A stretch of DNA of 64,000 nt, taken from Candidatus Woesearchaeota archaeon (GTDB lineage Archaea; Nanobdellota; Nanobdellia; Woesearchaeales; ARS49). The DNA is taken from contig JAWCLR010000002.1 in the NCBI GenBank assembly GCA_038850615.1, positions 1,798-65,797 on the forward strand, in the 5' to 3' direction. Below are positions 1,067 to 37,602 of this stretch, piece after piece; the first letter of the stretch is position 1, and every line of letters begins with the position of its first letter. The position numbers were made by a program, and so were the translations under genes. A model generated the notes under the pieces. The model was not told the DNA's origin. It did not search any database and saw only the letters and a list, made by a program, of their open reading frames with translations.

Positions 1067-1091
1067 GTTTTTGAAGCGAAAATTTTCCGAT

Positions 1092-1703
1092 TCAGCCGTA
1101 TCCCCATCGAAGGTATGCAATAGGGCTTATTGCCAGGATGCCGTATTCTGGACTGGCAAGAACGTAAAGGGCTGCAAAGTCAGTTCCTACTGCTCGTGCT
1201 GCAATGTACCTGTCCGGCGTGTATCCGCGTGCAAAGCTCACAATACCGCCCTTGTACGCAAGCTCCACTTGTTCGCACGCGAGTGGCGCCCCTTGTATCT
1301 TGTACGCATAACTGCACAGGTATGCCTGCAGGTATGGCGTTGGGTCTAATGCGTAGTATCCTGCTCTTCCTGAATACGTGTGTATGTCGTTCCTGTAAAG
1401 GGTCAGGTAGTTGTAATGAGTAATTTCAGGTATTGGTATTCTGTTCACGCTGAACTCAACAAATTGGGGCGTCAATAATTCCTTGGGAGGCTGGGGCGTG
1501 AGTGTTGTGTTTGCTTTTGAGAAAAGGCTTGGAGGCAGCGGCGGGTAATTCCTTGGAGCCATCTTCAGCACGTCACTGCCCACGTCAAAATATTCGTAGT
1601 TGCTAACATGCCTGCCTGTCATTGAATTATAGCCTGTCAGTATCATGAATATTAGCGCTGCAATGCTCACAATTCCGAGCAGTATTATTTCCCACTTGTC
1701 CAT
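1092..1703 (-). CDS. membrane-anchored hypothetical protein (last gene of giant operon)
   Basis: ORF 1092..1757 begins at a TTG. ATG 1703 (MDKWEIILLGIVSIAALIFMILTG, an N-terminal TM helix) lies 13 nt after the stop of the 1997-aa gene, with GGTG just upstream. Confidence 0.6.
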   Translation of the reverse strand: MDKWEIILLGIVSIAALIFMILTGYNSMTGRHVSNYEYFDVGSDVLKMAPRNYPPLPPSLFSKANTTLTPQPPKELLTPQFVEFSVNRIPIPEITHYNYLTLYRNDIHTYSGRAGYYALDPTPYLQAYLCSYAYKIQGAPLACEQVELAYKGGIVSFARGYTPDRYIAARAVGTDFAALYVLASPEYGILAISPIAYLRWGYG

Positions 1704-1716
1704 TTTGCACCGCCCT

Positions 1717-4700
1717 TTAGGATACGAATTCCCATTTGTATCCTGAATAAGCCTCAATCAGTTCTTTTGATGAATATGATTTTTGTGATTCTGTCGCGAC
1801 TGGGCTGAATGTTTGTGATGTGCCTGATAAGAATGCAGTGTATCTCCATATGTCTGCCTGCTTTACAATCTTGTCCTTTATGTTTGTGCTGGGTTGTGTC
1901 ATTATGATTGTTGTTCCTTCTGGCATTAGTTCAAGTTCTTCCACTGTTGGCACTCCTGCAGGCGTCACAACAGTCTGTGCCGCTGGCGCAGGCGCTGCGA
2001 GCTTTGTCAGGGCTCTTGTCTTTGCGTTAATAAGCAGGGTGAGATCGCCGCTCCTGATTATTTGCAGGTCTTCCTGAATGCGGGTAGTGTTTATTTTTTC
2101 CGCGTTAAGGTCTGTTATTGTGTTTTGCGTGTCGTTTATTAGCTCTCCAAACAGCTTTTCGCGCTCTGGCATTATGTCTGTCCTTCCTGTTGATTTTATT
2201 AGGCTTTCAAGCTGTGTTTTGAACGTGTTTTCGTCTGCAAGCAGTTGTGCAAGCTGTGTCTTTAGTGCTGAGACAGAGCTGGCAAGGTTTTCTGGTGTCC
2301 AGGTTTCTGGCTTGATTGCTGCAAGCTTTGTCTTCCACGCGTTTTCGTCCGCAATTGCCTTTTCAAGCAATTGCCTGAGTTGTACTGCCTCGACAAGCGC
2401 CTGCGGGACTGCTGGCGGAGCCATTGCCTTGAGCTGGTCTTTTGTTGCGCATTGGACATTGAATGTCACTGTTTTTTGCTGCAGTGTTCCTTCGTCTGGG
2501 TCTGTGCTTACCTGTTCTGTGGGGTTGCCCTGCCTGTCAGCGTCATAAATCGTGAACACTGCTGTCCACGTGATGGGCACTTGCGGGTTGCAGCCTGCAA
2601 TTCCTCTTGTTGCTTCAGCCACTGGCGAGTATCCGACGAGAATTTCCAGCTGTTTTACGTTCGCCAACCGCGGAATATGGTCAAACTCGATATTGAGCAC
2701 ATAGCTCTTGCCGCCGACCTTTGCTGCAGGCAAATCAATCCTGACCTGATTTATCGGCTTGTCAACAGCCTGCTTGAAGGCGGTTGTCAGGGCACCTGAA
2801 CGGTACTGTTGCCAGCCGTTAGCGGCGTTCTTTGGCGGCATCTGGTCGATTCTCGGCGGGTTAATGCGGTGTATCGTGAATGTTTCCTCCCCCTGCGGGT
2901 CAGTGCCGTATGTCGGGAAGTATATTGAGAACCACATTTTTTCTGCTGCCGCCTTGCCCTGCGTGTCATCAACCCTTATGTTGCGCACGTATTTCCTTAT
3001 TTGCGTCACCCCCCAGATGTCTTGCGGTATCTGGACTGCTCCGGGTCCTGTTGCCGAATGCCTTGCTATTGTGTCCTGGTCAAGCACAAAGCTGGCAAGG
3101 GGTGTTATGTCGTTTTGTGCCTGTGGCACAATAAGCCGGTATGCGCCGTTTGTGCTCAGCGTGTACGGCAGTGTTGTGACGTCATCAATGCTTGTCTTGA
3201 GGGGCTTCCGTATCTGGTCAGGCATTGTTGCATCCACAACGTTGCCGGCAGCATCCTTTATTGCGTAGGTGAGGAATTTTTTTGCCTGGTTCTGGTATTT
3301 TCTTTCTTCAGGGTATTTCTGCTTTATGTCGAGTGCGAAGCTCAGCTTGTCGCCGAGCGCGAACACGCTCTGGCCTTCGGGGAGCAAGGGTGTTATTGTG
3401 CCTATGCTTATCCCGCTTTCCTGCTCGCCGAAGAGACACCTGAACTTTCCGCTGAACAGGTCAAGACCGCAGAATGCCGGGGCGTTGCCTCCTTCTGTTT
3501 CGCGGATTGTGCATTCTGTCTTGTCAACGCGCACGGTCCTTGTCTGTGGGTCCGTCCATTCCCATTCAAGGATTGCAGTGTCATATCTTACGTCGCTGTC
3601 TGGCTGGCTTTGGGCGCTTATTGCGAACGGCGCGTCAAAGTTGACAACCTCGAACTTCCTGGCAAGCCCGCGCCCAAGTTCTGGCGGCATGACTGTGATT
3701 ATTCTTTCCTGTGTTGCGCAGTCGCATTTGCCGTCAGGGTAGTCGGTCGGGTCGCAGTTGTAGCCTGAACTGCACTTGAGCTTGAGCCTGTAGCGCACGT
3801 CTGCGCCTGCAATCAGCCCTCCAGCAATGCGGTATGCCCATGTTGTGAGCCCGCTTGGTGATGTCGTTGGGTCGTATGAGACGAATGTGCGCCTGCAGGT
3901 TGTGAGCGCGCCCATTGTGTCAACAGGTATTTCCATCACTTGCTGCTGGAAGAGGCCTTGTATGTTTAAGTCCCACGTGCCTGTGAATGCCCACGTGCAT
4001 ATTGCGTGGACAAGCTTGCGCTCGCTGAACAATGACTTGTAAATTGGTGTTTCGCCGTATCTTTCCGTGACTCTCCTGCTTACTTCGCTTCCCGCCCCTG
4101 TTATTGCTCCAAGTACGTCTCCAACTTCCCCGAGCCCGCCCACGCGCATTCCTGCCCCTGCCGCGTTGAATTTTTCAGTGAAGCACGAGATTGCCTCAAA
4201 GAACAGGTCGCAAATGACTTGCGACAATGCTGCCGAGCAGAATCCTGTGCTTCCTTCGCCTGTCAGGAGTATCTTGCTGAAACAGCCGTGGAAAGCTCCA
4301 AGCACGTTGCGCCACATTTGTAAGTAACTGATTACTGCGGGCAGGCAGATGCATTGTATGCTTCTCAAAAGCCCGGAGTATGGCCTTACTATGTATTGGT
4401 CTTCTGGTGTTCCGACAATGTCATTAACCGCATCATATGCCTTCTTTATGTTTCCCATTTCGCAGGGGTGTATGCTGTACTGGCTTGGATATTCCCTGCA
4501 GAGCGCCTTGTATAGGCAGTCAATTTGTTCTTTTTCTGTTTGTGTTTCAGGCTGTTTTGAGCCTTCTGCGCGCACAGTAGGCTTTAGCCCGAAGCAGTCT
4601 GACACGTCTTTCTCCAGGGCTGCTGTCATTACTGAATTAATTCTGTATTGTTGCGTTTTTGAGAATCCTATTTCTTTTTCAGACATTTTTTCAAACTGCT

Positions 4701-7700
4701 GTGTTTTTGACACGTAGCCAGCAAAGACCCTGTATTGTGTTGCAGTGCCTCCGCCGCCGAGGAATGGGATTGATGGGGTCAAGAGGGATGCCCTTCCTGC
4801 CACGAATCCTGCCGGTATTGCGAACAGGTATACTGCGTTGTCATCAGCCCCTGGCCTTGCAGGCAGTGGTCCTTGCCATATTGCCTCAACGCGGACTGGC
4901 TGCCCGCTTGGCTGTCCTGTTCCTGACTCGCAGAATCCTGCCACGGCATTCCAGAGCCTGTTGCAGTCAAGGTCTTTCAAGTCGGCATTTGCCTGCTGTG
5001 CTGCAAGGCACGTGCTTTCCTTCAGTTCATCAAAGGTATCAAGGCTTTCGCCGACTGTTGTGCCGATTCCGCAGGCAGAGCTCCATTCGCGCTGGTACTG
5101 GACTCCGCAGCAGTTCGGGTGAGCTGGGCGGAGTATTTTCTGGCAGTCCTCAAGTTTTGGTCCAGGCAGTGTTTTTTTGCCTTTTGTGAACTCGTAAAGG
5201 TCAAGTATTCCTATCTTTCCCGGACTCTGGCTGCTCACGCGTCTTGTGTATTCCTCGTATGTCTCGCCGGCTGCGGGTTCAAGCCCAATGTCTTCGCGCA
5301 TTGCAGCCCCAGCAACGCTTTTGTACGTCGTGCTGATATAGTCCATTGTTGGCTTTTTGGGGTCTGTTATTTTGTAAGTGAATGCGCAGTCATTTCCTGC
5401 GTACAGCGTGCCTCCCATCCCTCCTGCGCTTCCGCCAACAGCCCATTCTGGCGCAAGCGCTGGGTTAATGTCAAGGGGTTCTGCATCGCCCATCTTGTCT
5501 TTGATGTATGTCTGGAATGTTGGCGCGCTTGGGCACGTGACCCTGTCGCAGATGCCGTGCATTATTTCTGTTTCAAACTTTCTGCTGGACTCTATTGCCT
5601 TTTCACATTTTTTACAAGCCTGTTGTTGCGCTATTCCTGCTTCCTGTCCCTCCTTTCCGTATTTTGCGTCGCAAAGCCCTGCTTCTGCTATCGGCTTGCT
5701 GAACTTGTTTACAACGCTGCTGATTTCGCATTCAAGCTTTTCCTGCACCCACTTGACGTACAGCCAGACTGTGCTTGCGAGGCAGCCGTAAAGCGCGTAC
5801 TCGCCTATTGTTGTGAGTGGCTTAAGGATTTTGTCAATGCGGTCTATTGCTGTTTCTGTGGCTTCGACTGCCTTTTTCATCAACCCTTTTGGTATTATGT
5901 CTGAGGGTATTGTTTGGTCTATTGCGACCTCGACGGGTATGCATATGCGTTGCACGCGGGGCTCGATTCTTGGCGTGACGACAGGCATTCGCGGGTCAGC
6001 CGGCTTGAGCTCAATTATTTCCTGGAACTGGATTTCCATTTGCAGGAAGAGCTTGATGCAGCCTGTGCCCGGCACAAGGCATTCCCCCCTTCGGTGTCCT
6101 GAAAGCGCCCTTTCTTTCTCGTTCGGTCCTGCTTCTGGCTTTTCAGGCAGGGGGTCGACATTTTCAAACTGCACCTGCACGTATCCTATCAGGTCTTTTG
6201 GTCCTTTAGCGCGGGTGTATTCCTGCACCTGCACCCAGTTGTGGTCGTATTCGTCTTCTGCCTGTTTGGCAAGCGGTATCGGGCGCACGTCCACTTTGAT
6301 GAGTTTTGCGTTGTGGCTTCCCACATAGGTTATGTTGAATGGAATTCCTATTTGTTGTACGCCGTCAAGCATCATTCTTGGGAGGAGGATGCTTGGCATT
6401 GCCTCGCCTATTCTTGCCTGCCACCACGTGCCTGTTCCGCAGAGCAGGAAGTCAACGTCAACAGGGCCGTGGCTGGCCTTGTTTCCTGCAAGGTCAACTG
6501 CCTCGAGGCGTATCTTGTTCGCCCAACCCTCTCCTGCCTCGACTGTTGTTTTTGTCGCGCCTTTCTTTATGCGCACGTCTGTCCTGAGCGTTGTCTTGAT
6601 TTCAAACGAGCCGTCAGGGAGCGTGACCTCGTACGCGCTTGGCTTTTTCTCGTCATTGATGTAAACGAATACTGTGGCCTGCTCGTCAAGCCTGCCTTTT
6701 ATTTTTATGTCAGGCGAGTAGGACGGGCTTAATTCCTCAAGGTTTGTTTCGAGGAATTTTGGTCCTGTGTTGTCCATCACGACTGTTTTTTCTATGACTT
6801 CCCTGTTTCCTGCAGGGTCTTCAAAGATTATCTCAATGTCGTTTTGCCCTGCTGTGAGCGGGATTGTGAGGGAGAAGGGGCTTCCTGCTGTCATTATCTG
6901 GTATTTTGGCTCGCAGCTGAGATTGATTTCCGGCAGTGCAGGAAGAGGTGCTGTTGAGCCGCCTGTTTTTGTTGCGAGCGTAATCTCTGCAGAAGGACCG
7001 ATATTGCAGCTTGCGTCAACAGCAGAAATGCTGTAAGAATACTGCTTTCCTGTCAGCAATGCCTCGTCCTTGTAGCTTGGGAGGGTTGTTGTTGCTATGC
7101 GCTTTCCATTGCGTATAACAAGGTATTCTTTTACGTCTGCATCAGCGCTCGGGTCCCATGCGAGCTCGACAGCGTTTGCCTCAATCTTGGTTGCCCTGAG
7201 CCCGCCTATGATTTTTGGTGGCGTTCTATCCTGGCGGTTGATGACGCGCCACTTTATGGTCACTTTTTCATTGACATCGCCTGAGACAGTGATGCTGTTC
7301 TGGGTTGTTGCGGCGGGGATTTCCTTGTCCAGTTTTACGATTGGCGGGTTGGGGTCAAAGGTTGTTGTGAATTCCTTTTTCGCAACTGTTTCTCCTTCGT
7401 GCGCCTCAAGCCTAATTGTGTTGCTTCCTTCCTTTAGCACTATTCCTGTGAACTTGAACCACCCGTCTGGGGATGCTGTGCCAACCCTTTGGCGCGCCTC
7501 GTTGACAAAAACGTGCACTGCTGCAGACGGCTTTGTGTTGCCTTCGATTGTTATTGTGCCCGTGCTTGATTGTTGGGGGATGCTTGCCTCTATTGTGAAA
7601 GTTCCGGGTGCTGTTGCAGTGGTGTTTTCAGCTGCTGCAAATGGCAGTGCTGCAATTAGCACAACCATCAACAACGCCGTTGCCTTATTCAAATTCCGGC

Positions 7701-7710
7701 TGTAATGCAT
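1717..7710 (-). CDS. giant secreted Cys-rich surface protein (1997 aa), unknown family
   Basis: Uninterrupted 6-kb ORF. Sec-type signal peptide MHYSRNLNKATALLMVVLIAALPFAAAEN. Ig-like stretches and an Fn3-like segment (aa ~164-248, LRATKIEANAVELAWDPSADADVKEYLVIRNG...YSYSISAVD). Cys-rich central core. C-terminal coiled-coil-like region (aa ~1772-1905). Confidence 0.9.
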   Translation of the reverse strand: MHYSRNLNKATALLMVVLIAALPFAAAENTTATAPGTFTIEASIPQQSSTGTITIEGNTKPSAAVHVFVNEARQRVGTASPDGWFKFTGIVLKEGSNTIRLEAHEGETVAKKEFTTTFDPNPPIVKLDKEIPAATTQNSITVSGDVNEKVTIKWRVINRQDRTPPKIIGGLRATKIEANAVELAWDPSADADVKEYLVIRNGKRIATTTLPSYKDEALLTGKQYSYSISAVDASCNIGPSAEITLATKTGGSTAPLPALPEINLSCEPKYQIMTAGSPFSLTIPLTAGQNDIEIIFEDPAGNREVIEKTVVMDNTGPKFLETNLEELSPSYSPDIKIKGRLDEQATVFVYINDEKKPSAYEVTLPDGSFEIKTTLRTDVRIKKGATKTTVEAGEGWANKIRLEAVDLAGNKASHGPVDVDFLLCGTGTWWQARIGEAMPSILLPRMMLDGVQQIGIPFNITYVGSHNAKLIKVDVRPIPLAKQAEDEYDHNWVQVQEYTRAKGPKDLIGYVQVQFENVDPLPEKPEAGPNEKERALSGHRRGECLVPGTGCIKLFLQMEIQFQEIIELKPADPRMPVVTPRIEPRVQRICIPVEVAIDQTIPSDIIPKGLMKKAVEATETAIDRIDKILKPLTTIGEYALYGCLASTVWLYVKWVQEKLECEISSVVNKFSKPIAEAGLCDAKYGKEGQEAGIAQQQACKKCEKAIESSRKFETEIMHGICDRVTCPSAPTFQTYIKDKMGDAEPLDINPALAPEWAVGGSAGGMGGTLYAGNDCAFTYKITDPKKPTMDYISTTYKSVAGAAMREDIGLEPAAGETYEEYTRRVSSQSPGKIGILDLYEFTKGKKTLPGPKLEDCQKILRPAHPNCCGVQYQREWSSACGIGTTVGESLDTFDELKESTCLAAQQANADLKDLDCNRLWNAVAGFCESGTGQPSGQPVRVEAIWQGPLPARPGADDNAVYLFAIPAGFVAGRASLLTPSIPFLGGGGTATQYRVFAGYVSKTQQFEKMSEKEIGFSKTQQYRINSVMTAALEKDVSDCFGLKPTVRAEGSKQPETQTEKEQIDCLYKALCREYPSQYSIHPCEMGNIKKAYDAVNDIVGTPEDQYIVRPYSGLLRSIQCICLPAVISYLQMWRNVLGAFHGCFSKILLTGEGSTGFCSAALSQVICDLFFEAISCFTEKFNAAGAGMRVGGLGEVGDVLGAITGAGSEVSRRVTERYGETPIYKSLFSERKLVHAICTWAFTGTWDLNIQGLFQQQVMEIPVDTMGALTTCRRTFVSYDPTTSPSGLTTWAYRIAGGLIAGADVRYRLKLKCSSGYNCDPTDYPDGKCDCATQERIITVMPPELGRGLARKFEVVNFDAPFAISAQSQPDSDVRYDTAILEWEWTDPQTRTVRVDKTECTIRETEGGNAPAFCGLDLFSGKFRCLFGEQESGISIGTITPLLPEGQSVFALGDKLSFALDIKQKYPEERKYQNQAKKFLTYAIKDAAGNVVDATMPDQIRKPLKTSIDDVTTLPYTLSTNGAYRLIVPQAQNDITPLASFVLDQDTIARHSATGPGAVQIPQDIWGVTQIRKYVRNIRVDDTQGKAAAEKMWFSIYFPTYGTDPQGEETFTIHRINPPRIDQMPPKNAANGWQQYRSGALTTAFKQAVDKPINQVRIDLPAAKVGGKSYVLNIEFDHIPRLANVKQLEILVGYSPVAEATRGIAGCNPQVPITWTAVFTIYDADRQGNPTEQVSTDPDEGTLQQKTVTFNVQCATKDQLKAMAPPAVPQALVEAVQLRQLLEKAIADENAWKTKLAAIKPETWTPENLASSVSALKTQLAQLLADENTFKTQLESLIKSTGRTDIMPEREKLFGELINDTQNTITDLNAEKINTTRIQEDLQIIRSGDLTLLINAKTRALTKLAAPAPAAQTVVTPAGVPTVEELELMPEGTTIIMTQPSTNIKDKIVKQADIWRYTAFLSGTSQTFSPVATESQKSYSSKELIEAYSGYKWEFVS

Positions 7711-9661
7711 CGCGGTATTCCCCCTCCATTATGTATGACATCATTTTGAGCTTTTGGTCGTCAGTGACGGGCGTGGGCAGGTATTGCACAAGGTGTATTA
7801 TTGCTGTTTCCTTGCCTGCGATTGAATCGTAAGGTATTCTGAGCGCCTGCGCGTTGTACCCACCCATTTGGCTGTTGCGCAGGAACAGCAGTGCGTCAAT
7901 GTCATAGTGCGCGTCGTCAAGCACGAGCTCCAGCGTTTCGTTGGTTGTTGGGAAACCGATGAATTGGTCAAAGGTCCTGTTTACCAGGCTCACGTGCAGA
8001 GAGACGCGCTCGTTTTCTTTCAGCGCCCTTGGTGCTCCCCATGTCTTTGTCTCGCCGTGGTATGGGTGCACGACAAACTTGAGTTTCATTGGCTGGAGTT
8101 TCTTGAGCTCAATGTCAAGCCTGTCATTCCTCATTTGCGCGGTTGTCGTGAGGTAGCCTTCCTTTTCTGCTGTTATGAATGGGTTTGTACATCCGCGCGG
8201 CAAATATGTTAGCAATCTGTAAATGCCTCCTTCTGCTGTTGTTGTGCCGAGTTCGCATTCTTGGTCAAAGCACTTGTATGTGAGCCTTACGTCTGGCAGT
8301 TCCATGAGCACGGGCGCACCCGGCATTGTGGCGCCTATTGCACGGATTTCAGCAAGCCTGTCGCCGAGTGTTGTGCAGAATTCCGGCGCTCCGAAGTCTG
8401 CTGCCTGGAACCTTCTGAGCCCGAAGGCAATGCGCTCTGGCGCGTTCTGGTTTATTAGGACAGGGAATGCAAACTGGAATATGAATCCCTGGCCGTTGAA
8501 TGCTGTGTCGTCGCGTATTGATGCCTTCACGTAATATATTATGTCGTACGCAAAGTGCCATTGGTTTAGGCATAGGAATCTCAGGTATTTGCTTGCGCCC
8601 TTTGCTGCGTTTGACTTGAGTACTGGTCCTTCGCTTGGCTGGGCATTGAGCTGCATTCCCCACGCAGGTTGGTACTCAAATCCTATTTTGAGGTCTGTCG
8701 GTCTTGCGCCCACGTCATAGAATTGATGGAAGTATGCAAATGCGTCATCAGGCGCCTGCGTTTTTGGCTCCTTCATTTCCCTCCCCTGCTCAAGCTCCTT
8801 TGTCATACGCGCATAATCCTTCCTGAGGGTTTCATAAGTGCTCTTGCTTGCAGTGAATGGGAAAAAGTCAGTGTTTTTGATGCGCGTGAGCGGTATGTTG
8901 TAATACAATATTTTTTGCAGCCTGTCTTGGATGTCTTCAATCCTCCATTTTTTTACTCCGCATTCCAATGCAAAGCCGTCAAGGGGGATGTTTTCGCTGT
9001 CAGCAGCCATAAGGTCTATTGTGAGGTTTTCAAACATTGCCAGTTCGTTTTCTTTTGCCATTGTTGCGTTCGCGAGCTCCCATATCTGCTTGAGCCGCAC
9101 AGGGGTCCTTGTGATAAAGTCAGGAATTTTTATTGTTCTTTCGCCTGACGCAAGGGATATGGGCCAGGAAACCCGCATTATTACTTCATTGTCGCCGATT
9201 ATTGTCATTGTGCTTATGTTGCCTTCTTCTGTTATCCTGAACCGGTCCTTGAACGCCTCGAATTCGCCGGTGCACTCTTTCAGGCGCTTGTTGACGTGCC
9301 TTGAAATTTCGCGTTCCATAAAGCTGAGGCTCGGGGTGCGGTCTTCCCCTTCATAATACCACAATGGGACCTTGAACTGGTTGAAGGTGTCTATCGGGAT
9401 GTATGCTGTTGGTGTTCTTTCAATTATTCCGGGCAACTCTATGAATCCGCCTTGCAGACCAAGAATTCCTATTCCCTCGCGTGCAACCTCATCCACGCAG
9501 CCCTCTATGAAGTCATAGAATGGCCGAACGTCTTCCGGCACCATGATTTCTTCCTCGACGGGCTTTACTGCCTTTTCTGTCACGAGGTATATGACTATTG
9601 ATGCGCTTACCAGCAGGATTAGCCCGATGATTATGAATAGCGTTATCTGCCCTTTTTTCAT
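7685..9661 (-). CDS. class-III-signal-peptide-like N-terminus protein (658 aa), paralog of 15760..17934
   Basis: N-terminus MKKGQITLFIIIGLILLVSASIVIYLV (KKG followed by a hydrophobic helix). Collinear similarity to the 724-aa ORF. CarboxypepD_reg-like beta-sandwich stretch. The start overlaps the upstream stop as TAATG (9659-9663). Confidence 0.9.
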   Translation of the reverse strand: MKKGQITLFIIIGLILLVSASIVIYLVTEKAVKPVEEEIMVPEDVRPFYDFIEGCVDEVAREGIGILGLQGGFIELPGIIERTPTAYIPIDTFNQFKVPLWYYEGEDRTPSLSFMEREISRHVNKRLKECTGEFEAFKDRFRITEEGNISTMTIIGDNEVIMRVSWPISLASGERTIKIPDFITRTPVRLKQIWELANATMAKENELAMFENLTIDLMAADSENIPLDGFALECGVKKWRIEDIQDRLQKILYYNIPLTRIKNTDFFPFTASKSTYETLRKDYARMTKELEQGREMKEPKTQAPDDAFAYFHQFYDVGARPTDLKIGFEYQPAWGMQLNAQPSEGPVLKSNAAKGASKYLRFLCLNQWHFAYDIIYYVKASIRDDTAFNGQGFIFQFAFPVLINQNAPERIAFGLRRFQAADFGAPEFCTTLGDRLAEIRAIGATMPGAPVLMELPDVRLTYKCFDQECELGTTTAEGGIYRLLTYLPRGCTNPFITAEKEGYLTTTAQMRNDRLDIELKKLQPMKLKFVVHPYHGETKTWGAPRALKENERVSLHVSLVNRTFDQFIGFPTTNETLELVLDDAHYDIDALLFLRNSQMGGYNAQALRIPYDSIAGKETAIIHLVQYLPTPVTDDQKLKMMSYIMEGEYRDALQPEFE

Positions 9662-10542
9662 TATATCTGCCTCAAAACGTTTCTCATATATATTCTATAC
9701 CATGCCATGAATGCGAAATACGCTGTGAACGCTATTGCGAGCGCGAACTTGCCCGTCCCTATGTGTATTGCCTGGCTGATGATTACGTAAACGATTAGTA
9801 TGTAGCAGTACGGTTGTGCGAATGCTGGAATCTTCCCAAGCCCCTTCCTGAACGCTTCAATAAGTGATTTTTTCATTTCCTGCACTTTTGCGTATGAATA
9901 ATGGAGCGCTGTGGTAAGGTGGGTGTACAAAAGCAATAGCACAATTATTACAGGGACTCCGCCTTCTGGCTTCATTGTTATCATAAAGAACAGCGCAAGC
10001 ACGGTCCATATGGTGTACCATACAAGGTTCAGCAGGCCAAGGCGCGCAAAAAACCCAAGTTCCGGCTTTTTGCCGAGCAAAACCAGCCAGACAAGCCCGC
10101 GCGATATTGTGTATACGATGATTGTGGCAAGGTAGAATGCAGCAAGCGCAATTCCTGAATAGAGGAAGAACTTGCCGAGAATTGTGTTGTATGCTGCAAG
10201 GCTTTCGGGTGCAAGCGATGGGCTTGCTGGTATTGCGTTGAGGGCTTCTGCATTTGCAAGGATTATTTTGTAAAGCAAGATTGTCAGCAATGCGCACGCA
10301 ACAAAAGTCATTGCGTCAATGAACATTATTATTGCAAATTCCTTTTTGAGCCTGAACGAAGTGATGACGTCCTTCAGGTTTTTCTTTGCAGAAGTGTTTG
10401 GTGCCAGCGCGAGTATCAGGCCTGCTATTGCAAGGATTATTGCATGGGACAATTGCTGCAGTTTCACTTGCACAATGATTGCGAGAATTATTAGAACGAT
10501 TCCTATAATTCGCGGTATTGTGATGATGTCTTTTGTTTTCAT
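9661..10542 (-). CDS. polytopic integral membrane protein (~293 aa, ~7-8 TM)
   Basis: ORF 9661..10656. ATG 10542 (MKTKDIITIPRIIGIVLIILAII) forms an ATGA overlap with the stop of the 680-aa gene. Repeated ~20-aa hydrophobic segments run throughout. Confidence 0.8.
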   Translation of the reverse strand: MKTKDIITIPRIIGIVLIILAIIVQVKLQQLSHAIILAIAGLILALAPNTSAKKNLKDVITSFRLKKEFAIIMFIDAMTFVACALLTILLYKIILANAEALNAIPASPSLAPESLAAYNTILGKFFLYSGIALAAFYLATIIVYTISRGLVWLVLLGKKPELGFFARLGLLNLVWYTIWTVLALFFMITMKPEGGVPVIIVLLLLYTHLTTALHYSYAKVQEMKKSLIEAFRKGLGKIPAFAQPYCYILIVYVIISQAIHIGTGKFALAIAFTAYFAFMAWYRIYMRNVLRQI

Positions 10543-12581
10543 ACGGTTGCTCCTGGAGCTGCCCCTGGCTGAGTGCCTGGCGGTGCAAGTTTTGTTTTTT
10601 CCGTAATTCCGTATGGCGCTGTTGCTCCGCCTGTGTATTGCACGATTTGGTTGCATATGTGGTCTTTGTGCTTGCCGTCAAATGTGTCAATGCTTGGATC
10701 AAACTCAATGCATACCTCTCGATAATCATTGGATGAGAGCTTCATGAGTGCTGCTGCGCCTGTTGCGCTCACGCTTCCACGCTTAGGCAGGTATTGGGGC
10801 TCTGGCCACCATCTTGCTGACCTTGTTGGGCCGTTGAAGACGATGTTGTATGTCATTCCTTCTTCTTCGCTTGGGTCTGAGAGCCCTAAAGTGACAGTGT
10901 ACACCCACATTGTCTCGTTTGGCGTTATGAACGGCAGTGAGCGCTGTCCCTCTATGTGCGCGACTGCCTCTGGGAATCCTCCGGCAGGCGATGAATAAAG
11001 TATTCCGTCGCGTGGCTCCTCAATGTCGTAATACCGCCCGCAAATCTTTGATATCAGGCATTGCTTGCCAAGCAGGCCTTTTGTGTATTCGCACATTACC
11101 TTGTTTATGCCGTCTCTCCACTTCTGGAGGAATTCCTCGTCAAAAATCAGGGATGACCATCCTGCCATTCCTGAGTACATCTGATAAAGCGCAACGGCGT
11201 CTGTCATGATGCCCGCGAGTGTTTGTCGTGCTGACTTTAATGCGTCTTCTGCTTTGGCAAGGTTCTGCCGTGCAATTGCCTCGTCCTTTACTGCCTTGTC
11301 TGCTGCCGCGACTGCCTCGTTGTATTTTTTTTCAGCATTCTTGATTTTGTTTTCGTCCCCTGTCGAGATGGCCTCTTCATATTCGTTTGATGCGTCTGCA
11401 AGCGCGTCCTGCTTGCTTTGCAGTTCCTTTGCTGCCTGCCTGACCTGGTTTTGCGCTTTTAGCACCGCTTCCCTTGCTTCTTTCACTGATAATTCCGCCG
11501 CCTGTATTTTTTCAGGCTCTTTTGCCCTTTCCGCCTGAGCTGCTGCTTTTGCGTCTGCCTTTTTGTTTTCATCTCTCGTTATTACAGCAGCTTGCAAGTC
11601 GCTCTCAGTTTCTGACTTTGGGGCTGCACTGGTGAACGCAACGTATTCCATGTTAGCCATTGTTTCAGGATCGCTTTCTTTAAGCGCCTTAATTTCTGTT
11701 TCTGTCAGGTCAAATGTTTCTTCATCCCTTGTCACGTAATATGTGTACTTTTTTGTTTCAGGGTTGTATTTTACTTCCACCATGGAAACGTCAAATGGCA
11801 GTTGTTCAGGCGATTTTGGCGCTGAGAGCCCGAAGGCGTTGTTTTTTGCCGAGAGTTCCTTGTAATACAATATTCTGGGCTCGCTTTCCCTGAGCGCTTC
11901 AACTTCAAATTGGGAAACAGGAACTGTCTCTCCTGACGGCGTTGTCCTGAAATAATCGTATTTGTCATGGGTGGCATCATACACTACGGTTATTGTTTCT
12001 ATGTCTGCTGTGTATATTCTTGGTTCTGCTGGTTTGGCCATTATTTCGGCTAGTGCCATTTGTGCTTCATTTAGTTTTTGCTGTGCTGCAATAATGTCTT
12101 CCTTGCTTGCTTCTCCCCTGCTGGCTGCTTCTTGGATTTCTGCAAGGTCCTTTTCTGCTTCCTGTACTGCGTACGCTCTTGTTATTGACAACGCCTGTGG
12201 GTCGGTCAGTTCTTCAGGAACTTGTTCAGGGGCTTGTGCTTTTCTTTCTGCAATTTCCCTCTCAAATTCCCTGCTCACTCTCGCAACGTATTCTTCCATT
12301 GTTTCTTTTTGGGTTGCAGAAGGCCCGCTGACTGCTTCAAAGCCTTGTTCAGGGCTTACATCGTATCTTATGACAACATCTGGCTCTATCAATCTGCCTT
12401 CGCGGTCGCACTTTTGCAGGCCGTAAATGTAGCCGCCGGCAGGATTATACCCCCAGCCGTAAACCTTGTAATACGTTTTGCCGTCAAAAATAATGTCATT
12501 GCCCACCCAGTGCTCTTGTGCAGCCGCAATGCTTGCGCTGAGCAAAAGGAAGATGATTGTTGCTGTTGCGAGCCTGTTCAT
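10539..12581 (-). CDS. secreted coiled-coil / Cys-rich protein (680 aa), unknown family
   Basis: Signal peptide MNRLATATIIFLLLSASIAAAQE. Two ~39-aa internal repeats. Long Ala/Glu/Lys-rich helical region. C-terminal Cys-containing domain carrying FLQKWRDGINKVMC. ATGA overlaps at both ends. Confidence 0.9.
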   Translation of the reverse strand: MNRLATATIIFLLLSASIAAAQEHWVGNDIIFDGKTYYKVYGWGYNPAGGYIYGLQKCDREGRLIEPDVVIRYDVSPEQGFEAVSGPSATQKETMEEYVARVSREFEREIAERKAQAPEQVPEELTDPQALSITRAYAVQEAEKDLAEIQEAASRGEASKEDIIAAQQKLNEAQMALAEIMAKPAEPRIYTADIETITVVYDATHDKYDYFRTTPSGETVPVSQFEVEALRESEPRILYYKELSAKNNAFGLSAPKSPEQLPFDVSMVEVKYNPETKKYTYYVTRDEETFDLTETEIKALKESDPETMANMEYVAFTSAAPKSETESDLQAAVITRDENKKADAKAAAQAERAKEPEKIQAAELSVKEAREAVLKAQNQVRQAAKELQSKQDALADASNEYEEAISTGDENKIKNAEKKYNEAVAAADKAVKDEAIARQNLAKAEDALKSARQTLAGIMTDAVALYQMYSGMAGWSSLIFDEEFLQKWRDGINKVMCEYTKGLLGKQCLISKICGRYYDIEEPRDGILYSSPAGGFPEAVAHIEGQRSLPFITPNETMWVYTVTLGLSDPSEEEGMTYNIVFNGPTRSARWWPEPQYLPKRGSVSATGAAALMKLSSNDYREVCIEFDPSIDTFDGKHKDHICNQIVQYTGGATAPYGITEKTKLAPPGTQPGAAPGATV

Positions 12582-15500
12582 GAGACCACCCTTGATTGCC
12601 TGCTTGCCTCAAATGACTTATACGCTTCCTTAAAGTCATCGCACCAATTGCTGCTTATTGAGCCAAAGTCGTCTTTGACGCTCTTGAAGCTTTTTATGTC
12701 GCGGACAGTGTCGCCGAGCTGCGCTATTATTGACATGACTGCGCAGGCCGTGTATGCCCAGTGCGTTCCTTTTGGCAAATTGCAGGCTGTCTGGCAGTCA
12801 AGTATGTATCCGATTCCGGCCATTGCAAGCACAAGCGGGTCAGAGAATATTCTTTTCCAGATTGTGATGTAATAATCGATGAGAGGCGCGAACGGAATGA
12901 GGTTGAATATTTCGCCGGTCACGAATGTGCACTGCATGTAGTGCCTTTGGTCCTTGCACACGCTGATAGGCATTCCTTGTTCGCGCACATCCTCAAGCAG
13001 GCAGAGCCCGTACCTGCATTCTATCTGGCGCCACTTGTCCAGGTTGTAAATGATTCCAGGAATGCATAACGGCGGTATTGCAATGCTGAATACGAGGCTG
13101 TCTTTCACGTTCAGGTACGCGTCAGGGTCTTGTATGTCAATGCCTGCCTCAGCTGTGGTTGCTCTCAAGCTACTCGCTCCAGGGTATCCCGAGATAAGCT
13201 TGTCCCATATTCCTTGCCCCGCAGCACTTGCGCCCTCAATGCCCAGCCCCAACGAGCTCATGAATCCTTCCTTGTCAAGGAAATCAAAGATTCCTGTCTG
13301 GCAGGTTATGAAGTTGCAGAATTTTTTTAGTGTTTCTAGGAGCTTGCTGTTGTACAGTTTGCGCGTGGTTTCTGCACTGTTGCATGATGTTCTTTCTACG
13401 GCGTGTATTGCCTGGCCGAGGTTCAGGCCTGCAATTCCGACTATTGGCAGGTTGTCTATGGTGTCTGCAGTGGCGCCGAGCAGCACCATTATGGAGGTCA
13501 TCAAGGATATCATGCCCATTACCATATTCAGTATCTGGCACAGGTTTTCTGAATACCTTATGTATTTCTGCATCTGGCCGATAAGATTCCATACGCCTTC
13601 TACCTTGTCAGCAACATCCTTGACGTCGCCGGCAACACTGTCGTGCGCCTCGCCAAGGGGTAGGTTGTAGAATTTGAGCATTACTGTCATGTTGTCGTGC
13701 TCAAAGTTCTGCGGGATAAAGCTGCCCACCCTTGTGAGTATTGATATCGGGCAAGTGAATGTGAGATTGTTGATTTTGTAGTCCCTCGCAACAAGTGAAA
13801 GCACAAGGTAGGGCTCTGTGCTGCCTGCAAAATTGTTCTCAATGCGCATGTCAGAGATGTATTCCATCTGGCCTGTGCATTCGCTGAAGTAGTCAAGCGG
13901 CCCTTGCACTGTCAATGGCATTGCGTTCTTGTTCGTGCTGGCGAGCTTTATGTGGCAGAATACGGGGTGCTCAAAGACAGAAAGTGTTGTGCGGTCAAGC
14001 AGTTCAGGCGAGCATTCTGTTGTTGCGGTCCAGTAGTTCGGGCTTGTCTCGTTGCTTATTCCAAGTATGTAAAGCTTGTTTGTTGCCAGCACCGCCTTGT
14101 TGCCTGCCTGGTCGAAGGAGCCAAACCTTATGAGTGTTGGCTGCGGCCCTGAAACAGCATTTGTCACGCCAAAAGTGCAGGTCCTTTGCGTCAGGTCGCC
14201 TTCGCAGCGCTCTGGCGCAACATCCTTGCCGCCGCCCAAGTCAGTGAAATCAGCGACTGCGCTTGTGAAGCCCATTCCCTGAACGACGAACTCAAGTGTT
14301 TCGCCAAGGGTGGTATAGTTTGTTTTAACGCGCTGTTGCCCCCTGAACGCTGCTATTTCTAAAAGCCTTACCCCCTCCGGGGCTGTCTTGTCAAACCTGA
14401 TTTTTGTTTGCAGTGTCTTTGTGACTTGGTTGTTGAGGTTGTCGCGTGTTGTGGGCAGAAGCTTTATTTCGTAGGTTCCGCTTGCTACTGTTGGCCTTAC
14501 GTTCCACTGGCATTTCCAAGTGCCTGTTGTTGTTTTTTCGCAGGCGTCTGCTTTTACTTCTGTGCCGATTCCGAACTGCCTGAGGTCAAGGAACGCATTG
14601 CGTTTGCTCATTCCAGAGCCTGTTTCAGTGAATTCGGCAAATATTGTGCCGTTTATGCCGAGCAACGGCGTTCCGTCTTCGTCTGCAAACTGCGTGCCCA
14701 GTGTTAACGGCTCTGGCGGGGTGTCATCAATGCCTATTGTGCACGTGAGTGTTTTTGCGTCCTTGTTGCCCATCAAGTCAGAGGCGTTCACTGTTACTTG
14801 GCATGTGCTTGGGGTTGTTATTGCAATGTTGCGCCAGACAAACCAGTCCCCTTTCTGTAGGTCCTTTGGCTTTTTGCCAAGCAAGGGATTGAGCTTTGAG
14901 AGGTCTGCGTAAACGCTTGCGGGATTGATGTCAGCATCAGGAATCCTCACGTACACGTCTGCTGTTATTTGCTGGTTGCTCCTGGCGTGCGTTATTGCAT
15001 ACCCTTCTGCGTCCCGGATTTCAAGCGCGTCAGGGGTTGGCTTGCGTGAGTCAATAAATATGTCCTGGCACGCAGGCATGCTCTTGTGATTAACATAGTC
15101 TGTTGCAACAGCGCACACAGTTAGCCTGCCGCTCTGCCCCTGTATTTGGGGCGTGAATGTGTAATTGCCGTCTTTAGTGCAGTTTGCAACGCCTGCTGAT
15201 GCCTGTAAGATTTGCGTGTTGTTGGCAGTGATGCTTACCTGCTTGATTCCGGAGCAGCCAGTTGTCTTGCCTGTTTCATAGCCGTAGTCTTCTGCTTTAT
15301 AAGTTATTTTCACAGGTTTTGCGCTTGAGCTCATGTTCGGCGTGACGCTAAAATGGGTGATTTTTGGTGGCAAAACATCAACCGTCAGCGTTTTTTCCAC
15401 TGAGGCGATTTCCCTGTTTTCCGCGTCAAAGAGCTTTATTGTGTAGGTGTCTGTTCCGCCGTAAATCAGGTTTGTTGTCTTGTAAGTGCACTGGTACACT

Positions 15501-15763
15501 GCCTGCGCTTGTGAAGTGCACGTGTTCATGAATGAATACGTGTCCTCGTAATACACGCGCGCTCTCTGCCTTGCAACCTCAGGCGTGGGGCTGCCGAGCA
15601 TTTCGGCAAGCACCTGTATTGTGAGTTCGTCATTCTCCTTTGCAAACCCGTTCACGTTGCTGGTGCCTGCGAATTTCTGCACTGTCAATTGCTGGGCAAA
15701 TGCTACAGGAAGCATCACTACTAGCCAGATTATGAGCCATGCCTGTAAAATTTTTTGTTTCAT
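12578..15763 (-). CDS. secreted Ig-like-repeat protein with hydrophobic Cys-rich C-terminal core (1061 aa)
   Basis: Signal peptide MKQKILQAWLIIWLVVMLPVAFAQQ. About 650 aa of beta-sandwich-like sequence. The C-terminal ~350 aa has hydrophobic helices and many Cys, including CIPGIIYNLDKWRQIECRYGLC. Confidence 0.9.
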   Translation of the reverse strand: MKQKILQAWLIIWLVVMLPVAFAQQLTVQKFAGTSNVNGFAKENDELTIQVLAEMLGSPTPEVARQRARVYYEDTYSFMNTCTSQAQAVYQCTYKTTNLIYGGTDTYTIKLFDAENREIASVEKTLTVDVLPPKITHFSVTPNMSSSAKPVKITYKAEDYGYETGKTTGCSGIKQVSITANNTQILQASAGVANCTKDGNYTFTPQIQGQSGRLTVCAVATDYVNHKSMPACQDIFIDSRKPTPDALEIRDAEGYAITHARSNQQITADVYVRIPDADINPASVYADLSKLNPLLGKKPKDLQKGDWFVWRNIAITTPSTCQVTVNASDLMGNKDAKTLTCTIGIDDTPPEPLTLGTQFADEDGTPLLGINGTIFAEFTETGSGMSKRNAFLDLRQFGIGTEVKADACEKTTTGTWKCQWNVRPTVASGTYEIKLLPTTRDNLNNQVTKTLQTKIRFDKTAPEGVRLLEIAAFRGQQRVKTNYTTLGETLEFVVQGMGFTSAVADFTDLGGGKDVAPERCEGDLTQRTCTFGVTNAVSGPQPTLIRFGSFDQAGNKAVLATNKLYILGISNETSPNYWTATTECSPELLDRTTLSVFEHPVFCHIKLASTNKNAMPLTVQGPLDYFSECTGQMEYISDMRIENNFAGSTEPYLVLSLVARDYKINNLTFTCPISILTRVGSFIPQNFEHDNMTVMLKFYNLPLGEAHDSVAGDVKDVADKVEGVWNLIGQMQKYIRYSENLCQILNMVMGMISLMTSIMVLLGATADTIDNLPIVGIAGLNLGQAIHAVERTSCNSAETTRKLYNSKLLETLKKFCNFITCQTGIFDFLDKEGFMSSLGLGIEGASAAGQGIWDKLISGYPGASSLRATTAEAGIDIQDPDAYLNVKDSLVFSIAIPPLCIPGIIYNLDKWRQIECRYGLCLLEDVREQGMPISVCKDQRHYMQCTFVTGEIFNLIPFAPLIDYYITIWKRIFSDPLVLAMAGIGYILDCQTACNLPKGTHWAYTACAVMSIIAQLGDTVRDIKSFKSVKDDFGSISSNWCDDFKEAYKSFEASRQSRVVS

Positions 15764-17934
15764 GTTATTCTTGGCGTAAGTATGTCCTTGTATTGTTCTG
15801 AGTAGCTGGCCAGGTTTCCCATTACCTGTACGTCTTCTATTTTTCTTTTGTCTATTGGAAGTACCTTGTCAAGTGCGAAATTGATGTAAGTGAACTCAAT
15901 GTTTTTTGCGTTCTTAAGCTCGTTTTCCGTGATGGTCCAGTCGTATTCTGCGTATCCTGAAAGCATTTGTTGTTCCTGCGTGAAGCGCACTTCGGGCAGG
16001 GTGTAGCTTCCTTTCCTGAACATGTCCTTGCGGTAGTAGCGCTTTTCAGCTGGTATCACGAGGTCCGGTGAGGGGTACAGGAAGCTGTAAATCGTTACGT
16101 GGTAATCGCCTGCATAGACAGGTATGTTTTTTGAGTTGTCTGCAGGCGGTGTTCCGCAGGGAATGTTTGCTTTTGAGACGGGTGCTCCGCAGACTTCGCC
16201 AAGGATGACAACCGGCTCCTCAAACTCAGGCCCTTTTCTTTCAAGCATTATGAATGTCTGCTCGCGGGGTCCCTGATTGAAGACTTGGCTGGTGTCAACA
16301 TCCCAGTTGCCATAGTTGTCATTTTTTGGGTCTGTTTCTTTTTTAAGCAGCCATTTTTTGACCGAAAAGTTAACTGGGTATGCGACGTTAAGTGTTAGGT
16401 CTATTGTTCGATCGCTGTTGTCTGTTATGTCAAGCGGCATTGTTGCTGGGGCATAGTCAGGGTGGCTTGCTGATACAAACCCGCCAATGCATCGCGGGAA
16501 TGTTGCAACAAGCGTTCCTTTGGCTGTTGAACCGATATGGCAGCTTTCTGTTCCGCAGGCATATGTGATTTCTGCTCCATCAACAGGCTGTCCTGCGCTT
16601 GTGACTGCATTGATTGTTATTTTTCCGCTTGCGCGCTGGTCAGGGTCGCAGAGCATTGATCTGCGCTCTTCCAGCGCGGGCATTTCAGGGAGTGTTCCAA
16701 GCTTTGCAAGGGGTTCGTTGTTGCGCAGGTTTGCCTCAAGGGCTATTCTGAATGTGTATCCTTCGCCTCCGAATGCGCCTGTGTCTGTCAGCTCCACGAT
16801 TACAGGATAGCTGATGTCGTATGCAAAATTGTATCTTTTTATTCCAAAGGCAAAGACCAGAAGGTTGTTAAACCCTTCTGCCTGGCAGAGCTGGCCGTTG
16901 CAGTTCAGGTCCATGTATGGCTTCCACCAGGGGAGGTAAGCGAATTTTGCGCTTATTCCTCTGTTTGTGCTGTCAAAGAGGGGGATTGTGAATCCTCTGT
17001 TGTACAGGGCATCGTAAAGCTTTGCGTCTTTGCCTGCTGGCGCGGTCAGGTAGATGTAATTGCTTGTGTCAGTGACTTTGAGCAGCGGTATGTGGCTTGC
17101 TAGCATCTCCCTTATTTTTTGCAGAACGCCGTATTTTGTCCATATTGTTCCAGGACCGTACTTGAATTCAAGGTCAGATACTGGTGGCAATGCGTTCTCG
17201 TCAGCTCTGCCGAAGACGTCAATGAGGGCACGTGTTGCGCGCTCAAGGAATGAGTGTTCTGCCTCCAATGCAGTGATTTTTGTTGCGAGGGAATACAGTT
17301 TTTTGAATGCAACAGGCAGTTCTGCGGCATATTTATCAAGCTTGAATGTTTCCCCTGCCCTTTTTACTTCAAGTGGATAAGTAAGTAGCACTATTATGTT
17401 TTCGTCAGTGATTTGCGTTTCTGTCTTCATCTTGCCTGTTGGCGTTATTGTGAATTGTTGTTCCTTGAACTGCTTTAATTCGCCAAGGCATTTTGGAAGT
17501 GTTCTTGTAATGTAAGTGTCAAGCTGTAATTTTATTTGTTCAAGGGTTGGGCGCTCTGTTGCAAACGTGCAGTCTTTCTTGCATGTGTTTTTTGCGTTCA
17601 TGTGCCACCAGTACGGCACAATCAGCTGTGATTCTGGTGCGAGCTGCAATGCTCTCCCTGCAGTGGGCTCAAACGTGTTGTATGGGTGGCGGGGGCTTAT
17701 GTAGCCGCCTCGCTGGCCAAGGCGCATTAGGCCGTCTTTTGCTGTTATCTTCAGGCAGTCCTGTATGAAGTCCCTTAATGGTTGCATTTCAGCAGGCACT
17801 TCTGCCATCCTAATGCGCTCTGCCTCAACAGGCGCTATTGCCGCTCTGGTTGTGAGATAAACATATATGCTGATTCCGATCAGGAGAAGTAGGCCGACAA
17901 TTATGAAAAGCGTCAACTGCCCCTTTTTTGTCAT
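15760..17934 (-). CDS. class-III-signal-peptide-like N-terminus protein (724 aa), first gene of giant operon
   Basis: N-terminus MTKKGQLTLFIIVGLLLLIGISIYVYL. Paralogous to 7685..9661 (for example VPYWWH / VPLWYY and FAYDISYPVIVELTD / FAYDIIYYVKASIRD). CarboxypepD_reg-like stretch GKITINAVTSAGQPVDGAEITY. Confidence 0.9.
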   Translation of the reverse strand: MTKKGQLTLFIIVGLLLLIGISIYVYLTTRAAIAPVEAERIRMAEVPAEMQPLRDFIQDCLKITAKDGLMRLGQRGGYISPRHPYNTFEPTAGRALQLAPESQLIVPYWWHMNAKNTCKKDCTFATERPTLEQIKLQLDTYITRTLPKCLGELKQFKEQQFTITPTGKMKTETQITDENIIVLLTYPLEVKRAGETFKLDKYAAELPVAFKKLYSLATKITALEAEHSFLERATRALIDVFGRADENALPPVSDLEFKYGPGTIWTKYGVLQKIREMLASHIPLLKVTDTSNYIYLTAPAGKDAKLYDALYNRGFTIPLFDSTNRGISAKFAYLPWWKPYMDLNCNGQLCQAEGFNNLLVFAFGIKRYNFAYDISYPVIVELTDTGAFGGEGYTFRIALEANLRNNEPLAKLGTLPEMPALEERRSMLCDPDQRASGKITINAVTSAGQPVDGAEITYACGTESCHIGSTAKGTLVATFPRCIGGFVSASHPDYAPATMPLDITDNSDRTIDLTLNVAYPVNFSVKKWLLKKETDPKNDNYGNWDVDTSQVFNQGPREQTFIMLERKGPEFEEPVVILGEVCGAPVSKANIPCGTPPADNSKNIPVYAGDYHVTIYSFLYPSPDLVIPAEKRYYRKDMFRKGSYTLPEVRFTQEQQMLSGYAEYDWTITENELKNAKNIEFTYINFALDKVLPIDKRKIEDVQVMGNLASYSEQYKDILTPRIT

Positions 17935-17979
17935 ACCAAACCCTTTTTTTCAATTATGCACGGAACAACCTTTGTTGGG

Positions 17980-37599: not shown

Positions 37600-37602
37600 G
37601 CC

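Follow-up and report, generated by a model that had tools for sequence, protein, structure and literature searches.

Gene order, junctions and conservation of the operon

The DNA analyzed here, referred to below as the window, is a 64,000-nt stretch of contig JAWCLR010000002.1 from the assembly GCA_038850615.1 of a Candidatus Woesearchaeota archaeon. Using the list of open reading frames (ORFs) and their translations, we found that seven minus-strand genes, called A–G here, occupy positions 1092-17934 (Table 1). An earlier reading made from the sequence alone had listed six minus-strand ORFs and a seventh one after them, and had described them as a translationally coupled operon of giant exported or anchored proteins. 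Re-reading of the ORFs gave the same strand and the same sizes, and the junctions, the promoter and the signal segments agree with this description. Direct reading of the sequence confirmed the junctions as well. The A/B, B/C and C/D junctions are ATGA overlaps, and the D/E junction is TAATG. E and F overlap by 26 nt when F starts at M1, and a 13-nt spacer separates the F stop codon from the ATG of G. A public gene call places the F start at M15, which gives a protein of 1983 aa and a 17-nt gap after E. The F homologs carry a similar extension of about 10 residues ahead of the hydrophobic core at the N-terminus. We kept the start at M1, because the N-termini of the homologs favor the longer start and the longer start yields a proper signal peptide.

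A TATA-like box had also been noticed upstream of A. It is present, and the TTTATATA site turned out to be the sole TTTAWATA match in positions 1-17987 on either strand. It is likely that this site serves as the single promoter of the operon. In the whole window, TTTAWATA was found 13 times against 2.3 expected, and several copies that were checked lie a short distance upstream of gene or tRNA starts (e.g., 24034, 29461, 34238 and 56134). The motif can be used as a promoter marker for the source genome. Downstream of G, the T-rich palindromes that had been described were seen as two T6 runs and an inverted repeat at 983-1011. The ORF at 17931-18269, which overlaps the A start, was discarded as a spurious one, since it runs across the AT-rich promoter and no gene abuts A in most relatives. 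Since there is one promoter and the 4-nt start/stop overlaps are conserved, A–G can be tied into one unit. The promoter and the junctions support the view that this unit is co-transcribed and translationally coupled.

Table 1. Positions of the operon genes, the regulatory elements and the adjacent genes in the window
Feature	Positions	Strand	Details
Gene A	15760-17934	(-)	724 aa
Gene B	12578-15763	(-)	1061 aa
Gene C	10539-12581	(-)	680 aa
Gene D	9661-10542	(-)	293 aa from M39 of a 331-aa ORF
Gene E	7685-9661	(-)	658 aa
Gene F	1717-7710	(-)	1997 aa from M1
Gene G	1092-1703	(-)	203 aa from M19
Archaeal TATA box TTTATATA	17980-17987	(-)	45 nt before the A start codon
Putative terminator region	999-1066	(-)	T6 runs at 1061-1066 and 999-1004 on the coding strand, past the G stop (1092-1094)
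Upstream neighbor U	18570-19229	(-)	start at GTG 19229 or ATG 19064
Transglutaminase-like (Transglut_core/DUF553) protein with a central transmembrane segment	87-968	(-)	directly downstream of G, past a T-rich spacer

We determined how widely this gene set occurs. One genome per GTDB species was scanned with the E-family alignment; at least 235 species genomes hold a relative, and 80 loci were returned. The ORFs of 84 loci were assigned with family hidden Markov models. In essentially every sufficiently long locus among these 84, the order is A-B-C-D-E-F-(D')-G, down to about 30% identity, and two distant A homologs (34% and 29% identity) have the same gene neighbors. D' is a second polytopic D-like protein of about 270 aa, encoded between F and G in most relatives. 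It is missing from the window and from its closest relative, the locus L009, so it was either lost or never present there. The seven genes of the sequence-only reading stand, and the eighth gene of most relatives was absent from its account. The commonest junction is the -4 (ATGA) overlap, found at A-B in 28 of 41 cases, B-C in 17 of 43, C-D in 16 of 56 and E-F in 34 of 72. In 25 loci, a G homolog of 196-238 aa closes the cluster. Among the species-representative records with the operon (L005, L006, L013, L039, L058 and others), many bear the title 'uncultured Methanosarcinales archaeon', two that of 'Binatia bacterium' and one that of 'Aenigmatarchaeota', probably because the names are placeholders or the contigs were mis-binned.

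The genes could in principle belong to a provirus or a mobile element, or they could be a product of chimeric assembly. A weak PHROGs match of F to 'major tail protein' points in this direction, and it covers the Fn3 domain only. No relative was found in IMG/VR (2.9 million contigs), and no integrase or other mobile-element hallmark was found. The window carries archaeal housekeeping genes (L10e, L15e, S3Ae, MCM, FtsZ, aCPSF1/FttA, DNA ligase, GyrB, TIM and PGI), and the named homologs of A, B and F are all annotated as 'hypothetical protein' in metagenome-assembled genomes (MAGs) of Candidatus Woesearchaeota or Nanoarchaeia. Because of these flanks and these homologs, we conclude that the region is chromosomal DNA of a DPANN archaeon and not of a mobile element. 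The DPANN archaea had been suggested before, and the homologs and the gene order are indeed found across Woesearchaeota. Loss of the gene order in relatives and chimeric assembly had been named as grounds against the operon. It turned out that the order holds, and that full-length homologs of every operon gene occur in the same order in dozens of independent assemblies, so a chimera is unlikely. Taken together, the flanks, the IMG/VR result and the recurrence across assemblies effectively refute a viral or mobile origin, and the whole alternative is hardly credible. The operon is real, strongly conserved and uncharacterized.

Proteins encoded in the operon

Each product of the operon had been said to carry an export or anchor signal. 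The hydropathy scan finds such a segment in every one of A–G: four products (A, E, D and G) have membrane anchors, and three (B, C and F) have Sec-type signals, as had been read from their N-termini. In blastp, A and E align with 27% identity over 570 aa (E = 4e-35), which makes them paralogs. A Kyte-Doolittle scan places an N-terminal hydrophobic helix after KKGQ in both proteins, and their N-termini, MTKKGQLTLFIIVG in A and MKKGQITLFIIIG in E, are class-III-like. The similarity and the conserved K-G-Q motif uphold the description of A and E as two paralogs with prepilin-like N-termini. Both families start with M-x(1-3)-[KR]-[GA]-Q-[ILV]-T-[ILV]-F-I-I-[IL]-G. In 30 of 38 A homologs and 67 of 75 E homologs, the first 30 residues contain the pattern [KR][GA]Q.[TS], mostly at residues 3-5, and Q at +1 and T at +3 are conserved in at least 90% of the A/E homologs. 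In Methanococcus maripaludis, the Epd pilins have the processing sites KGQV, KGQL and RAQI, and the dedicated peptidase EppA needs Gln at +1 (PMC4371748). In form, the A and E N-termini look like such EppA-type prepilin processing sites. Conservation of this kind at the cytoplasmic edge would be hard to explain for a plain membrane anchor.

The AlphaFold2 (AF2) model of A, calculated with 64 sequences, has a predicted local distance difference test score (pLDDT) of 89.1. The protein consists of a new alpha/beta domain at about 48-420 (370 residues), which includes the helix 48-74, and of beta-sandwich domains at about 439-720. Foldseek comparison of the model with PDB and BFVD gave only generic beta-sandwich, transthyretin-like or pilin-Ig matches with TM-scores of no more than 0.16; in BFVD, the matches were generic beta-sandwiches only, with TM-scores of no more than 0.15. 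There was no type IV pilin structure among the top 50 listed PDB matches of A, and the pilins in that list are Gram-positive ones of the sortase type. Pfam, NCBIfam, PHROGs and PDB sequence profiles gave no match for A, and a search of public assemblies for the exact A product returned nothing. Its 91 homologs are all 'hypothetical' and come from named Woesearchaeota. When E was used in an exhaustive HMMER search, 4624 cluster representatives passed E <=1e-3, and 445 passed E <=1e-30; in some cases, the weaker matches may reflect only generic beta-sandwich domains. The operon thus defines several large protein families without Pfam coverage, the A/E superfamily with these 4624 representatives at E <=1e-3 among them. 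Large proteins that have a class III signal and do not build pili are known, namely the subunits of the Sulfolobus bindosome. We therefore take A and E as probable pilin-like anchored subunits, and not as proven filament subunits.

The proteins B, C and F are exported giants. Their N-termini are Sec-like in the Kyte-Doolittle scan, and no C-terminal anchor or sorting signal was found in any of the three. In F, the Sec-type signal is followed by an Ig/Fn3/Glucodextran_B stalk at about 30-420 and a Cys-rich core at about 420-1500 with about 40 invariant cysteines. After the core come a beta-rich region, a coiled coil at about 1760-1900 and a variable C-terminal end; the C-terminal part of about 240 residues is the least conserved portion of the protein. 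The AF2 model of the F core (400-1599) has a pLDDT of 67 and consists of long beta-hairpins and helices of 35-60 residues, and Foldseek found no PDB match for it at E <1e-3. B has a Sec-type signal, an Ig-like array and, toward the C-terminus, a helical domain rich in Cys that includes a hydrophobic helix (744-769). About 27 cysteines are invariant in B. The B family has no PDB profile match. C has a Sec-type signal, two E/K/A/Q-rich stretches and a C-terminal domain that contains cysteines. Inside C, a unit of about 75 aa is repeated in tandem at residues of about 181-325 (31% identity, E = 2e-8). Owing to the E/K/A/Q-rich stretches and this repeat, the length of the family ranges from 424 to 1205 aa. 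No Pfam match was found in the window copy of C or in 40 homologs.

B, C and F had been thought to share a Cys-rich core. BLAST found no similarity among them, and profile-profile comparison with small alignments gave a probability of 9.5%. Using hhalign with richer alignments derived from the loci, we obtained a probability of 97% for homology between the Ig arrays at the N-termini of B and F. The same comparison aligned B 877-945 with F 1100-1176 in a Cys-rich motif of 66 columns (61% probability, E = 8e-5) of the form ...SL[VL]xS..C[IL]P[GA][IV]...L..WR.I...C..... C has no hhalign match to B or F. Thus, B and F may share a module, and C, as far as seen, does not. The shared core is retained as a weak motif between B and F and falls for C. 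Apart from this overstated paralogy of B, C and F, the sequence-only reading was accurate in its description and reasonable in its interpretation.

The remaining two proteins lie in the membrane. D is polytopic, with six or seven hydrophobic segments, and has homologs of 250-300 aa at the same position; G is bitopic, with one N-terminal membrane anchor. D matched none of Exosortase_EpsH, the archaeosortase NCBIfam models and CPBP (Abi), and neither did any of the 44 D/D' homologs scanned singly. When 109 homologs of C, D, D' and G were scanned singly against Pfam, no family was found, bar one stray cupredoxin. This is a C/D/G-family homolog with a cupredoxin/plastocyanin-like domain (E = 4e-12).

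It had been claimed that the products belong to no recognizable family beyond Ig/Fn3 beta-sandwiches and include no ATPase, peptidase or glycosyltransferase. Our searches lead to the same result. For all seven proteins, Pfam and NCBIfam gave only sub-threshold or generic matches to Big_3_3, fn3 and Glucodextran_B in the N-terminal parts of B and F, and PHROGs matched nothing but the Fn3 domain of F. Comparison of the A, B and F families with PDB sequence profiles gave nothing besides Fn3, and Foldseek on the models of A and the F core led to generic beta-sandwiches only and to no characterized system. No ATPase, peptidase or glycosyltransferase is encoded in the operon. The fold of class II fusogens (fusexin/HAP2, archaeal Fsx1) does not occur in the Foldseek PDB matches of A and the F core, and no description of the A–G gene set was found in the literature. 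The closest known concepts share no detectable core family with the operon, and the defining parts of the type IV filament (TFF) machinery are absent from the locus. For these reasons, together with the lack of a published description, we rate the composition of the operon as apparently a categorically new one, with the fold comparison covering the models of A and the F core.

Proposed function and its alternatives

The signal and anchor segments, the Ig/Fn3 stalks and the many invariant cysteines speak for a location of the products at the cell surface. With moderate confidence, we propose that the operon encodes a lineage-specific (Woesearchaeales, DPANN), membrane-anchored multi-subunit surface complex, which would most likely attach to the envelope of a host or prey and possibly breach it. 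A and E would be cut by a prepilin peptidase of the EppA/PibD type; afterwards, the N-terminal helix would keep them in the membrane or let them build a short pilin-like stub. A membrane-embedded base, made of D, G, the A/E helices and, in most relatives, D', would hold the soluble B, C and F at the surface. B and F would project Ig-domain stalks with Cys-rich heads, and C, with a coiled coil that differs about three-fold in length from one species to another, would act as a spacer. The other cell would be touched by the tip of F, its far C-terminus, which is variable and in some relatives has been replaced by or extended with peptidoglycan hydrolases. The sequence-only reading had also arrived at one multi-subunit envelope structure, which is reasonable; the 'stoichiometric' coupling and the pore or bridge functions it named are still conjecture.

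The hydrolases are the only functional clue, and a sparse one. The F homolog P0146 (2386 aa, Nanoarchaeia) has the same stalk and Cys-rich core as F, with 31% identity over 45% of F, and its C-terminus carries SLT (1985-2031) and VanY (2260-2381) domains. A scan of the C-terminal 600 residues in 50 complete F homologs gave one NlpC/P60 and one SLT domain; the NlpC/P60 domain forms the extreme C-terminus of the F homolog of the locus L057. Single-sequence phmmer with the SLT and VanY segments of P0146, a test of low sensitivity, found no further hydrolases in the loci. One more case concerns the A/E family. In the locus L001 (GCA_016185945.1), positions 6281-8396 encode a 253-aa protein with the A/E-type N-terminus MVNKAQVSLFFIFG and, 2 nt later, a 450-aa protein with an SLT domain. 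This pair lies 2 kb upstream of the operon and forms a mini-module that links the A/E family to murein lysis. SLT, VanY and NlpC/P60 all act on bacterial peptidoglycan, and archaea make none. Since the hydrolases are found at the F C-terminus and this region is the least conserved, the C-terminus is suggested to be the distal, partner-facing end, and the presence of hydrolases on some F relatives implies that this end reaches the wall of a bacterial partner. In A–G of the window, Pfam and NCBIfam detect no peptidoglycan hydrolase domain; the sequence-only reading missed the hydrolase ends of some F homologs.

The same domains suggest another explanation, in which B and F would be giant enzymes or toxins released by the cell, for example antibacterial or wall-degrading ones, and the remaining genes would supply accessory functions in export or immunity. 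Some F homologs do bear hydrolase domains, and bacteria-killing peptidoglycan hydrolases of archaea have been documented (PMC12352652). However, most F proteins, that of the window included, have no catalytic domain, and the conserved portion is the non-enzymatic core. Four membrane-anchored partners in a fixed order also argue for a complex that is retained by the cell. We consider secreted enzymes or toxins quite improbable.

Several observations weigh against the attachment complex as we propose it. Hydrolase domains are present in only 3 of about 79 F homologs, and the F of the window has none. The F core is about 55-60% identical between distant genera; such conservation would be expected of a structural machine more than of a host adhesin that evolves fast, and a role in the cell's own envelope would fit it equally well. 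Nearly all A and E sequences have Phe at +5 (QxTxF), not Glu as in EppA substrates, and the Pfam model PF04021 (Class_IIIsignal) gives E only 10.3 bits (E = 0.72) at a cut-off of 23.7. In the AF2 model of A, the helix 3-38 is followed by a linker of low confidence (33-40), and there is no continuous pilin alpha-1. Genes for a pilus ATPase, platform and peptidase were not found in the 64-kb window by Pfam and NCBIfam on the operon genes and the scanned ORFs. N-glycosylation sequons are only mildly enriched (4.3 against 2.7 per 1000 aa), and their density is uninformative.

The proteins could instead be a scaffold of the cell's own envelope, that is, an S-layer or wall-like layer with its membrane anchors and no contact device. 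This is consistent with a near-universal, single-locus, syntenic set in a core chromosomal context in at least 235 species, and with the high conservation of the F and B cores. Foldseek also matched A to Sulfolobus SlaB (E = 9e-7, TM 0.11/0.16). This match involves generic beta-sandwiches only, and no Pfam or NCBIfam S-layer family was detected in the operon products. The known archaeal S-layers consist of one or two proteins, whereas seven or eight coupled proteins are encoded here. The sequon density is low for an archaeal S-layer glycoprotein, and fusion of murein hydrolases to the F C-terminus would be senseless in an archaeon's own wall. A self-envelope scaffold is therefore doubtful.

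The N-termini of A and E raise the possibility that the operon encodes the tip or priming complex of a true type IV pilus. In this case, A and E would be large modular minor pilins, B, C and F would be adhesins associated with the pilus, by analogy with minor pilins and PilY1, and the ATPase and platform that build the filament would be encoded elsewhere. The EppA-type K-G-Q N-termini are conserved in both paralogs. In addition, two ORFs of about 200 aa at 22024-22623 (-) and 24497-25129 (-) have canonical-looking archaeal pilin N-termini, MNKKGLELSLTVIVV and MRFNKKGALELSITAIVV; lying 4-7 kb upstream of the operon, they are possible candidates for filament subunits. In archaeal TFF loci, large adhesin-like proteins rich in Ig domains are frequent, and some DPANN have the Epd-type TFF 'system 1' (bioRxiv 10.64898/2026.04.22.720090). 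Bacterial modular pilins with large adhesive modules are known as well (PMC8179133). However, the ATPase, platform and peptidase genes are missing from the operon as from the window, the AF2 model of A shows a flexible linker after the N-terminal helix in place of a pilin fold, and the polytopic D/D' and the bitopic G suggest a membrane-embedded base of its own. No TFF parts turned up among the conserved flanking families of related loci, whose flanks were not scanned for Pfam domains. A true pilus tip seems unlikely to us.

The operon has some features in common with several known systems. A and E resemble Epd pilins in the 3-5-residue leader, the [KR]-[GA] pair, the invariant Gln at +1 and the hydrophobic helix of about 20 residues; the EpdB-D sites (KGQV/KGQL) have the same form (PMC4371748). 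As in modular pilins, a large functional module follows the helix. The differences are the size (650-720 aa against 60-200 aa), Phe instead of Glu at +5, the flexible linker in the model, the sub-threshold Class_IIIsignal score and the lack of an ATPase or platform gene nearby. In the Sulfolobus bindosome (Bas), whose subunits are mentioned as peptidase substrates (PMC4371748), large surface proteins of about 500-700 aa likewise have a class III signal peptide that serves as their anchor for membrane attachment or oligomerization, and they form no long pili. Unlike them, A and E show no solute-binding fold and belong to no such family, basEF-like genes are absent, and the partners are giant Ig/Cys-rich proteins and not ABC transporters. 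The tip of the bacterial type IVa pilus also combines pilin-like subunits with a very large co-encoded non-pilin adhesin, PilY1, and the minor pilins and PilY1 are thought to form one stoichiometric complex (PMC7541494). In contrast to that tip, the operon belongs to a single-membrane archaeal envelope and includes polytopic subunits, and no sequence or fold relation between the two is detectable.

Much of the diversity of archaea belongs to DPANN, whose members are believed to live in attachment to other cells, and the proteins of their contact structures are unknown even in the few cultured systems (PMC11420986, PMC11329633). In Nanobdellota (YN1, Nanobdella aerobiophila and YN4), an attachment organelle was described as a large discrete structure embedded in the envelope, with an extruded filament that reaches the host; its protein components are stated to be unknown (PMC11420986; bioRxiv 10.64898/2026.06.04.730037). 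The organelle is used by members of the phylum to which the archaeon with the operon also belongs. It is known only from Nanobdellales, whereas homologs of the operon were found only in genomes labeled Woesearchaeota or Nanoarchaeia, with Nanobdellales outside the comparison. Structures of this class were seen by cryo-electron tomography (cryo-ET). We know of no cultured Woesearchaeales and of no image of any Woesearchaeales cell. It is conceivable, and in our estimate rather improbable, that A–G (with D') form the Woesearchaeal counterpart of this host-contact apparatus, in which an envelope-embedded base (D, D', G and the A/E helices) would extrude or present the giant stalk proteins B and F, which would pierce the wall of the partner. 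If the host-contact reading is true, the operon would be the first molecular parts list for the class of structures seen by cryo-ET.

In any case, the operon names seven or eight defined proteins that can be studied in Woesearchaeales, which form the largest order without cultured members. It also bears on the question whether these archaea attack bacteria. The 'large lytic murein transglycosylases' of Woesearchaeota (AR20; Lake A MAGs) were noted without placement in an operon and were read as a sign of predation on bacteria (PMC9723730). P0146, with its SLT and VanY domains, is evidently of the same class, so these enzymes are now tied to a multi-gene apparatus. Unlike them, the F of the window and about 96% of the F homologs have no hydrolase domain, and the conserved part is the uncharacterized core.

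Neighboring genes and the rest of the window

Only two families recur outside the cluster. The first is U, which consists of a helical N-terminal part, one transmembrane helix and an extracellular beta-rich part and has no Pfam match. In 14-16 loci, a member of the U family precedes A and is encoded on the same strand. The sequence-only reading missed this conserved neighbor. U is probably a transcription unit apart from A–G. The second family is represented by the transglutaminase-like gene at 87-968, whose position is kept only in the five closest relatives.

Between the two pilin-like ORFs, at 22635-24008 (-), there is a gene for a Cys-rich protein of 457 aa with the lipobox-like sequence VLVGC. 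None of these three ORFs belongs to a Pfam family. The window has a second pair of large adjacent genes: 35386-37599 (+) encodes a protein of 737 aa with no family, and 37603-42393 (+) encodes a protein of 1596 aa with a signal peptide and PKD domains. Neither the large surface genes at 35386-42393 nor the gene at 22635-24008 is related to the operon families. Rfam gave a tRNA match of 117 nt at 51907-52023 (+), which ARAGORN missed. This is most likely an intron-containing archaeal tRNA.

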